DNA from: Escherichia coli
GTDB lineage: Bacteria > Pseudomonadota > Gammaproteobacteria > Enterobacterales > Enterobacteriaceae
Length of the DNA: 64,000 nucleotides
Assembly (NCBI RefSeq): GCF_022846255.1
Contig: NZ_AP025682.1
Direction: 5' to 3' (one strand)
The notes beneath the pieces were generated by a model. It did no database searches, was not told where the DNA came from, and was given only the letters and a program-made list of their open reading frames with translations. Shown here one piece after another: positions 15,749-16,306 of the stretch (the first letter of the stretch is position 1; every line of letters starts with the position of its first letter). The position numbers were made by a program, and so were the translations under genes.

Positions 15749-16306
15749 AGGATGAATTCCTTTTCATAATCCCGATACAGTTGATAATTACGGCACAATC
15801 ATTTTTTTTATGAATAATTGGAGTGGGGCATATCCGCAAAATAAATTTGTTAGAGAATTTTTGTATTAATTGGTTGTGCGAATATGTTATTAAATGTCAA
15901 ACGATTTCAGTTTGTAGCCAATAATATTAATCGCGCGGATTTTAATGATCGGTGTCAATCGATGTCAAATGTTTCACCGGATAAAGGCACAGGGCATGGA
16001 AAGGTAAATATTCAGTTGAGTGATGTTTTATTGTGGAATTTGCGAAGATGATTGAAAAATTTAAATAATTAATTATGTTTCAAGCATTGATATGCGGCAA
16101 TTCATTGTTAATATTGATACATCGTTCTTTAATTTGTATCTGATTTTCAGAATTTAGCCTGGCATGTGCGCTAAAAAGAATAGAGGAGATTGAATATATA
16201 ATGTTAAGAACGTTATAAATATTCGATCTCTGAAACAGGCTCCTGCATGTGCCAGCAGGAGCGAGTAAATGGTGAGAGGCTGTGATTACAGCGACGAGAA
16301 AGGAAC
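15749..16306 (-). promoter_or_regulatory. AT-rich ~560-bp upstream region of the lipoprotein-adhesin operon (probable promoter, H-NS-type silencing target)
   Basis: Markedly AT-rich (by eye roughly 65-70 percent) versus the flanking genes; no convincing ORF; a hairpin near 16240-16265 may terminate yibL. Confidence 0.5.

Follow-up and report, generated by a model that had tools for sequence, protein, structure and literature searches.

Why is an adhesin operon of Escherichia coli preceded by an unusually long and AT-rich spacer, and how does that DNA bear on the operon's expression? We analyzed this question for positions 15749–16306 of a 64-kb stretch of DNA (the window). The original prediction was that this spacer is a silencer-like region with the composition of a nucleation site for the nucleoid protein H-NS. 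Two minus-strand genes flank the spacer, and a third, encoding the adhesin, completes the locus.

16307–16669, minus strand: yibL, 120 aa, DUF2810 (Pfam PF10928), identified from the RefSeq annotation of the homologous locus; neighbour upstream of the spacer.
15065–15748, minus strand: sadB-type inner-membrane lipoprotein gene, 227 aa, lipobox LLVGC, GC content about 0.40.
10390–15021, minus strand: trimeric autotransporter adhesin gene of the UpaG/EhaG/SadA type, 1543 aa, with the Pfam domains ESPR, YadA_head, YadA_stalk and YadA_anchor.

The stretch derives from an E. coli chromosome, and its closest spacer match is strain A3 (99.1%), in which the annotated context comprises lldP, a YadA-like protein, a DUF3251 lipoprotein, yibL, yibT and mtlRDA. 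Gene order in the window is mtlADR-yibT-yibL, the spacer, sadB, the adhesin gene and lldP. The 227-aa lipoprotein is a SadB homologue (match to PDB 4C47, SadB, E = 1.4e-66) of a type annotated as DUF3251 or as SadB/YajI family, and the adhesin gene starts 44 bp downstream of sadB. Within the adhesin gene, the 14-mer TTGGTGGCTTTCAA recurs at 12881, 13130 and 13379 (period 249 bp; region 12881–13392), pointing to tandem stalk/head repeats. Grin et al. 2014 (PMC3953254) place the sadBA operon between the mtl and lld operons. The Salmonella operon resembles the window in this position and in its arrangement of lipoprotein gene, 44-bp gap and trimeric autotransporter gene, although S. Typhimurium SadB is only 53% identical. 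The upaG region of strain CFT073 has the same chromosomal position and the same spacer length, and CFT073 UpaG (1778 aa versus 1543 aa in the window) is 70–80% identical to the window adhesin. The mtl and lld operons likewise enclose the spacer at hand, which separates yibL from a SadB-family gene followed by a YadA-type autotransporter gene. It is the regulatory region of a sadB–upaG (sadBA-type) adhesin operon; the original prediction had placed it upstream of a lipoprotein–adhesin operon, and the gene order puts it directly in front of one.

The spacer had also been described as far more AT-rich than its neighbours, and the GC calculation agrees: its GC content is 0.341, against 0.510 for the whole window. 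Across the 64 kb, 0.4% of all 558-nt segments reach a GC content this low or lower, and the lowest of them (15666–16223, GC 0.312) overlaps the spacer. Measured in 200-bp segments, the spacer averages 67.8% AT, which places it in the top 0.9% of the window, and its TpA frequency is roughly double the window mean. Among 37 gaps between greedily called genes, the spacer is the second longest, has the fourth lowest GC content, and is the only one that combines a length above 250 bp with a GC content below 0.37; the median intergenic gap has 129 bp and a GC content of 0.455. Composition alone is nevertheless not specific, because three shorter intergenic gaps are as AT-rich as the spacer or more so. 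The short gaps at 26964–27153 and 37871–37983, for instance, have GC contents of 0.27 and 0.28.

The boundaries given in the original prediction (about 560 bp) need two corrections. In 100-bp segments, the low-GC tract (GC <0.42) spans approximately 14967–16292. Because it continues through sadB to about 14967, the AT-rich domain is approximately 1.3 kb long rather than 560 bp. At the opposite end, the yibL-proximal 70 bp or so (16235–16306), about 13% of the interval, belong to the 3′ end of yibL and have ordinary GC content. AT content is thus far above average over several hundred base pairs (GC 0.34 over 558 bp; <0.42 over about 1.3 kb), and sadB itself has a GC content of 0.37–0.40 in the five lineages for which it was computed.

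We compared 13 spacers, from E. coli (the window, CFT073, E2348/69, AZ146, 33E, a rare 67% type and O157:H7), E. marmotae, E. ruysiae, E. fergusonii, Salmonella enterica and two Pseudocitrobacter species. Synteny is the same at all of these loci. Every spacer measures 489–558 bp with a GC content of 0.29–0.36, and identity to the window falls as low as 0.41–0.46; what survives the divergence is a promoter, a ribosome-binding site and a short distal element. Such retention of length and composition, but not of sequence, is more in line with the target of a nucleoid protein than with a series of specific operators.

Approximately 1220 of 5426 complete E. coli genomes carry the window's spacer type at 90–99% identity. 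About 650 more match only the sadB-proximal 226 nt (15749–15974), at 77%, and diverge upstream, and 2267 genomes, O157:H7 included (adhesin annotated ehaG), carry a very different type. The CFT073 spacer, which runs from yibL to the lipoprotein gene upstream of upaG, is 558 bp long and aligns without gaps at 95.3% identity (26 substitutions); the −35 and −10 elements of the core promoter are identical, as are 225 of 227 SadB residues. The O157:H7 ehaG allele resembles the window in its promoter, its promoter–ATG distance, its distal block and its GC content (0.33). The Salmonella spacer (526 bp, GC 0.31) carries a TTGACA-17-TAGCAT promoter and the TCTGAAAA block, and its identity to the spacer of the window is only about 0.43.

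At several other loci the genes beside the spacer are altered or replaced. In O157:H7 strain Z563 (positions 1821–1829 of locus L021), the third codon of the sadB homologue preceding ehaG is a stop (MN*), and the RefSeq coding sequence starts further downstream, so the SadB helper lipoprotein may be defective in this strain. In a derivative of the EPEC strain E2348/69 (L002, 1–3503), the adhesin and lipoprotein genes are annotated as pseudogenes with a frameshift and internal stops, and the spacer and promoter are intact. In strain 24AR0376 (L006, 1–2620), genes for an IS1 transposase and for a fimbrial usher and chaperone adjoin yibL where sadB and the adhesin gene would be expected, and about 50 bp of spacer remain. 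E. coli-type sadB (78–89% identity) also occurs on contigs labelled as Oscillospiraceae and Collinsella metagenome-assembled genomes (L008 and L009), which are probably binning contaminants.

The sadB-proximal part of the spacer contains two predicted elements of gene expression.

15939–15968, minus strand: predicted sigma-70 promoter of sadB–upaG, with −35 TTGACA at 15968–15963, an 18-nt spacer and −10 TAAAAT at 15944–15939.
15749–15932, minus strand: predicted AT-rich 5′ leader of about 184 nt, with the start site placed at about 15932/15931 from the position of the −10 element.

The promoter matches the consensus at 11 of 12 positions and is the only site in the 64 kb to match at least 11; about 4% of composition-matched random 558-mers hold such a site. 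The pattern TTGACA-17/18-TAnnAT recurs in 13 of 13 spacers, with the −10 element ending 163–202 nt before the sadB ATG, and TTTGACA is the only 7-mer common to eight deep lineages (null 0.6%). The core promoter is therefore conserved at every orthologous locus in the set. The leader length of approximately 184 nt follows from the start site at about 15932. A Shine–Dalgarno sequence, AAGGA, lies at 15762–15758 ahead of the ATG at 15748, and both it and the ATG context are conserved across alleles. The fold of the leader RNA is no more stable than that of shuffled sequences (z = −0.14).

Further sequence features accompany these elements. Three minus-strand TTGACA hexamers fall within 15895–15968 (at 15968–15963, 15958–15953 and 15900–15895), the first two of them forming a 10-bp tandem repeat, TTTGACATCG/ATTGACACCG. 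A GATC site at 15947–15950 inside the promoter spacer and a GC-rich discriminator, CCGCGCG, at 15938–15932 after the −10 element are each kept in some alleles only. A run of eight T at 15802–15809 reads as A8 in the leader RNA; other alleles interrupt the run, which makes a role in phase variation unlikely.

The distribution of the locus raises the question of whether its AT-rich DNA instead marks the border of a genomic island gained recently, or a scar left by one, and has no regulatory role. E. coli K-12 lacks an entire 5.97-kb block (10333–16305): the alignment with K-12 breaks off precisely at the stop codon of yibL (16306/16307), so that the whole spacer falls within the missing block, and resumes at 10332. 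These exact breakpoints, together with the presence of the allele in only part of the E. coli genomes, are what an island might leave. However, the order mtlD-mtlR-yibT-yibL-spacer-sadB-adhesin is also found in Salmonella, E. fergusonii, E. marmotae, E. ruysiae and Pseudocitrobacter; the edges of the block carry neither a tRNA gene nor an integrase nor a repeat border; and the promoter and Shine–Dalgarno sequence are conserved. Since the same synteny extends across genera, the block is ancestral and K-12 carries a deletion. We rejected a scar on the basis of this synteny and consider it scarcely credible. K-12 is described as carrying a 5-kb deletion at the sadBA locus (PMC3953254).

At its yibL end, the spacer folds into secondary structure.

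16239–16292, minus strand: 3′ flank of yibL with two hairpins, one at 16279–16292 and one formed by GCTCCTGC...GCAGGAGC at 16239–16262; ordinary GC content.

The predicted minimum free energy of this region is −26.6 kcal/mol, well below that of shuffled sequences (z = −3.57). The hairpin is kept among diverged Escherichia alleles, and Salmonella has a different hairpin in the same place. The hairpin is followed by CUGUUUCAGAG, with no U-tract, and a terminator scan returned nothing here; because the U-tract is lacking, the hairpins are not a canonical intrinsic terminator of yibL.

Between the hairpins and the promoter lies DNA that varies among alleles, and within it a short conserved block.

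15975–16234, minus strand: AT-rich DNA upstream of the promoter, GC content about 0.30, variable among alleles; a candidate H-NS-bound tract from its composition profile.
16143–16161, minus strand: distal conserved element CAGGCTAAATTCTGAAAAT with the core TCTGAAAA, at approximately −211 to −229 from the predicted start site.

The core TCTGAAAA is the only 8-mer common to six deep Escherichia/Salmonella lineages (null 0.05%), and the element lies 173–186 bp upstream of the −35 element in all full-length spacers. Its counterpart in Pseudocitrobacter is TCCGAAAA. The DNA around it has diverged to near-random identity across Escherichia, Salmonella and Pseudocitrobacter. No known consensus fits the element, and it is not enriched elsewhere in the 64-kb window. 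We considered a sigmaE promoter, since TCTGA resembles a sigmaE −10 element, and rejected it because the alignments show no GGAACTT-like −35 element. In the adjoining 28 bp (16162–16189), 15 of the 26 differences from the CFT073 spacer are packed together; this looks like a small recombination patch or a hypervariable segment. On sequence grounds, the element could conceivably bind a dedicated regulator or anti-silencer, or anchor an H-NS bridge, and so set the natural inducing condition of the operon, a suggestion that we offer tentatively.

The original prediction treated the spacer as silencer-like DNA only; it overlooked three features of it, namely the conserved promoter of the operon, the predicted leader of about 184 nt and the conserved distal element.

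A conserved block and an open reading frame might also indicate that the spacer conceals a small protein gene or an sRNA, for example the frame itself or a transcript near the distal block. The longest ORF (15884–16051, plus strand, 55 aa, ATG start) is intact in CFT073 and strain A3, and the block lies at its fixed distance of 173–186 bp from the −35 element. However, the ORF is intact only in these near-identical alleles and is truncated or absent in every diverged one, and it has no Pfam match; no small ORF is common to the diverged alleles or lineages; and the conserved block is merely about 10–19 nt long. An Rfam search of 14800–17300 gave zero matches at E ≤ 1, and a scan of both strands of the spacer region found no terminator-like site. 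With neither an Rfam match nor a stable leader fold, the spacer shows no sign of a known RNA family. A hidden gene is therefore very improbable, in keeping with the earlier statement that the spacer holds no convincing ORF.

Alternatively, the spacer could be an ordinary long promoter and leader mainly under specific regulators, for example FNR and Fur relaying anaerobic or iron signals, or a factor at the TCTGAAAA element, with AT-richness a by-product and H-NS a minor influence. Conservation of the distal element across genera and of a near-consensus core promoter would suit such an arrangement. In addition, Salmonella STM3690 (sadB) is listed as Fur- and Fnr-dependent under anaerobiosis, and its authors interpret it as a Fur/Fnr target rather than an H-NS target (PMC3212961). 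Our scans of the spacer found no good FNR, Fur, CRP, IHF, RcsAB, CpxR or Lrp site, which argues against such control. The best Fur match scores 12 of 19 and is equalled by 128 sites in the window; FNR consensus matches have two mismatches and positions unfit for activation; and nothing stands out for IHF, RcsAB, CRP, CpxR or Lrp. An LldR/PdhR-type sequence, AATTGGTTGTGCGAATA (11/14), occurs at 15868–15884 within the predicted leader, with a score equal to that of the lldP O2 operator at 10051–10067. We rejected it as a site, as matches in the window occur at chance number and conservation among the Escherichia alleles is limited to the ACCAATT half-site. Given also the cited H-NS dependence of UpaG (in a passage of PMC5012682) and the conservation of composition and length without sequence, which better fits a nucleoid-protein target, we regard control chiefly by specific regulators as unlikely. 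It ranks, with a hidden gene and an island scar, below silencing by H-NS.

Silencing by H-NS is the best reading of the spacer and is probably correct; it draws on composition and literature, and binding is predicted. The original prediction was right in what it observed and largely right in how it interpreted it, the nucleation site being putative. The composition and extent of the AT-rich domain fit what is generally known of H-NS targets. Classical H-NS-silenced promoters with AT-rich elements both upstream and downstream include proU, bgl and hilA, as well as upaC and upaH of uropathogenic E. coli. Like these, the sadB–upaG spacer has a long AT-rich tract on both sides of a good promoter, and it may share with them curvature near the start site and a gene that is silent in culture. 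It differs from them in having no mapped nucleation sites and no known anti-silencer, and in belonging to an ancestral, syntenic locus that is not clearly foreign DNA. The curvature calculation that the original prediction had proposed tentatively places the segment 15776–15950, by the predicted start site, in the top 1% of 150-bp segments of the window (wedge model); the rest of the spacer is unremarkable.

A high-affinity H-NS motif of the tCGATAAATT type was reportedly described by Lang et al. in 2007. In the form CGWTWAATT, it has one match with a single mismatch in the spacer, CGATTAATA at 15925–15933, at the predicted start site; the 64-kb window contains 60 matches, against 62 expected by chance, so the motif does not discriminate.

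The literature agrees with two further parts of the original prediction. It had stated that upaG/ehaG-type adhesins are reported to be repressed by H-NS, and a passage of PMC5012682 lists UpaG among the H-NS-repressed autotransporters of uropathogenic E. coli, citing Totsika et al. 2012; this is the allele of CFT073, whose spacer is 95.3% identical to that of the window. Both this region and the one ahead of O157:H7 ehaG are reportedly H-NS-repressed (Totsika et al. 2012, Appl Environ Microbiol 78:2179). It had also held the adhesin to be probably silent under laboratory conditions, which fits the report that SadA escaped detection in cultures of wild-type Salmonella, its native expression conditions being unknown (PMC3953254). 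Indirect support for H-NS comes from an anaerobic fur mutant of Salmonella, in which STM3690 (sadB) is down 4.2-fold and hns is up 3.1-fold; H-NS-repressed genes are reported to go down in this mutant (PMC3212961). H-NS control of Salmonella sadBA is not documented in the literature that we found. A phrase search of the literature on the upaG or ehaG promoter returned nothing, and we found no published ChIP table covering the locus; K-12, the usual E. coli strain for ChIP, lacks the region.

We propose that the spacer and the AT-rich sadB gene form one low-GC domain of about 1.3 kb, which H-NS, possibly with StpA or Hha-type partners, would coat on both sides of an intrinsically strong promoter. 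Under this coat the operon would stay off in standard culture unless a signal or an anti-silencer relieved the silencing. In this scheme we infer the start site, the occupancy of exactly this DNA by H-NS, and the mode of repression by filaments or bridging. A strong conserved promoter inside an AT-rich domain of conserved length and composition is the layout expected for silencing by H-NS.

The picture of an H-NS-silenced adhesin is already known, and our analysis leaves the accepted picture unchanged. Adhesins of the UpaG/EhaG/SadA group promote aggregation, the formation of biofilms and attachment to extracellular matrix. They are considered vaccine antigens, although PMC3953254 describes their natural conditions of expression as unknown. 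The spacer now offers handles for experiments: the promoter that these genera have in common, whose start site is predicted, the leader of about 184 nt and the short distal element. The last of these is the obvious place to seek the missing inducing signal of the operon.
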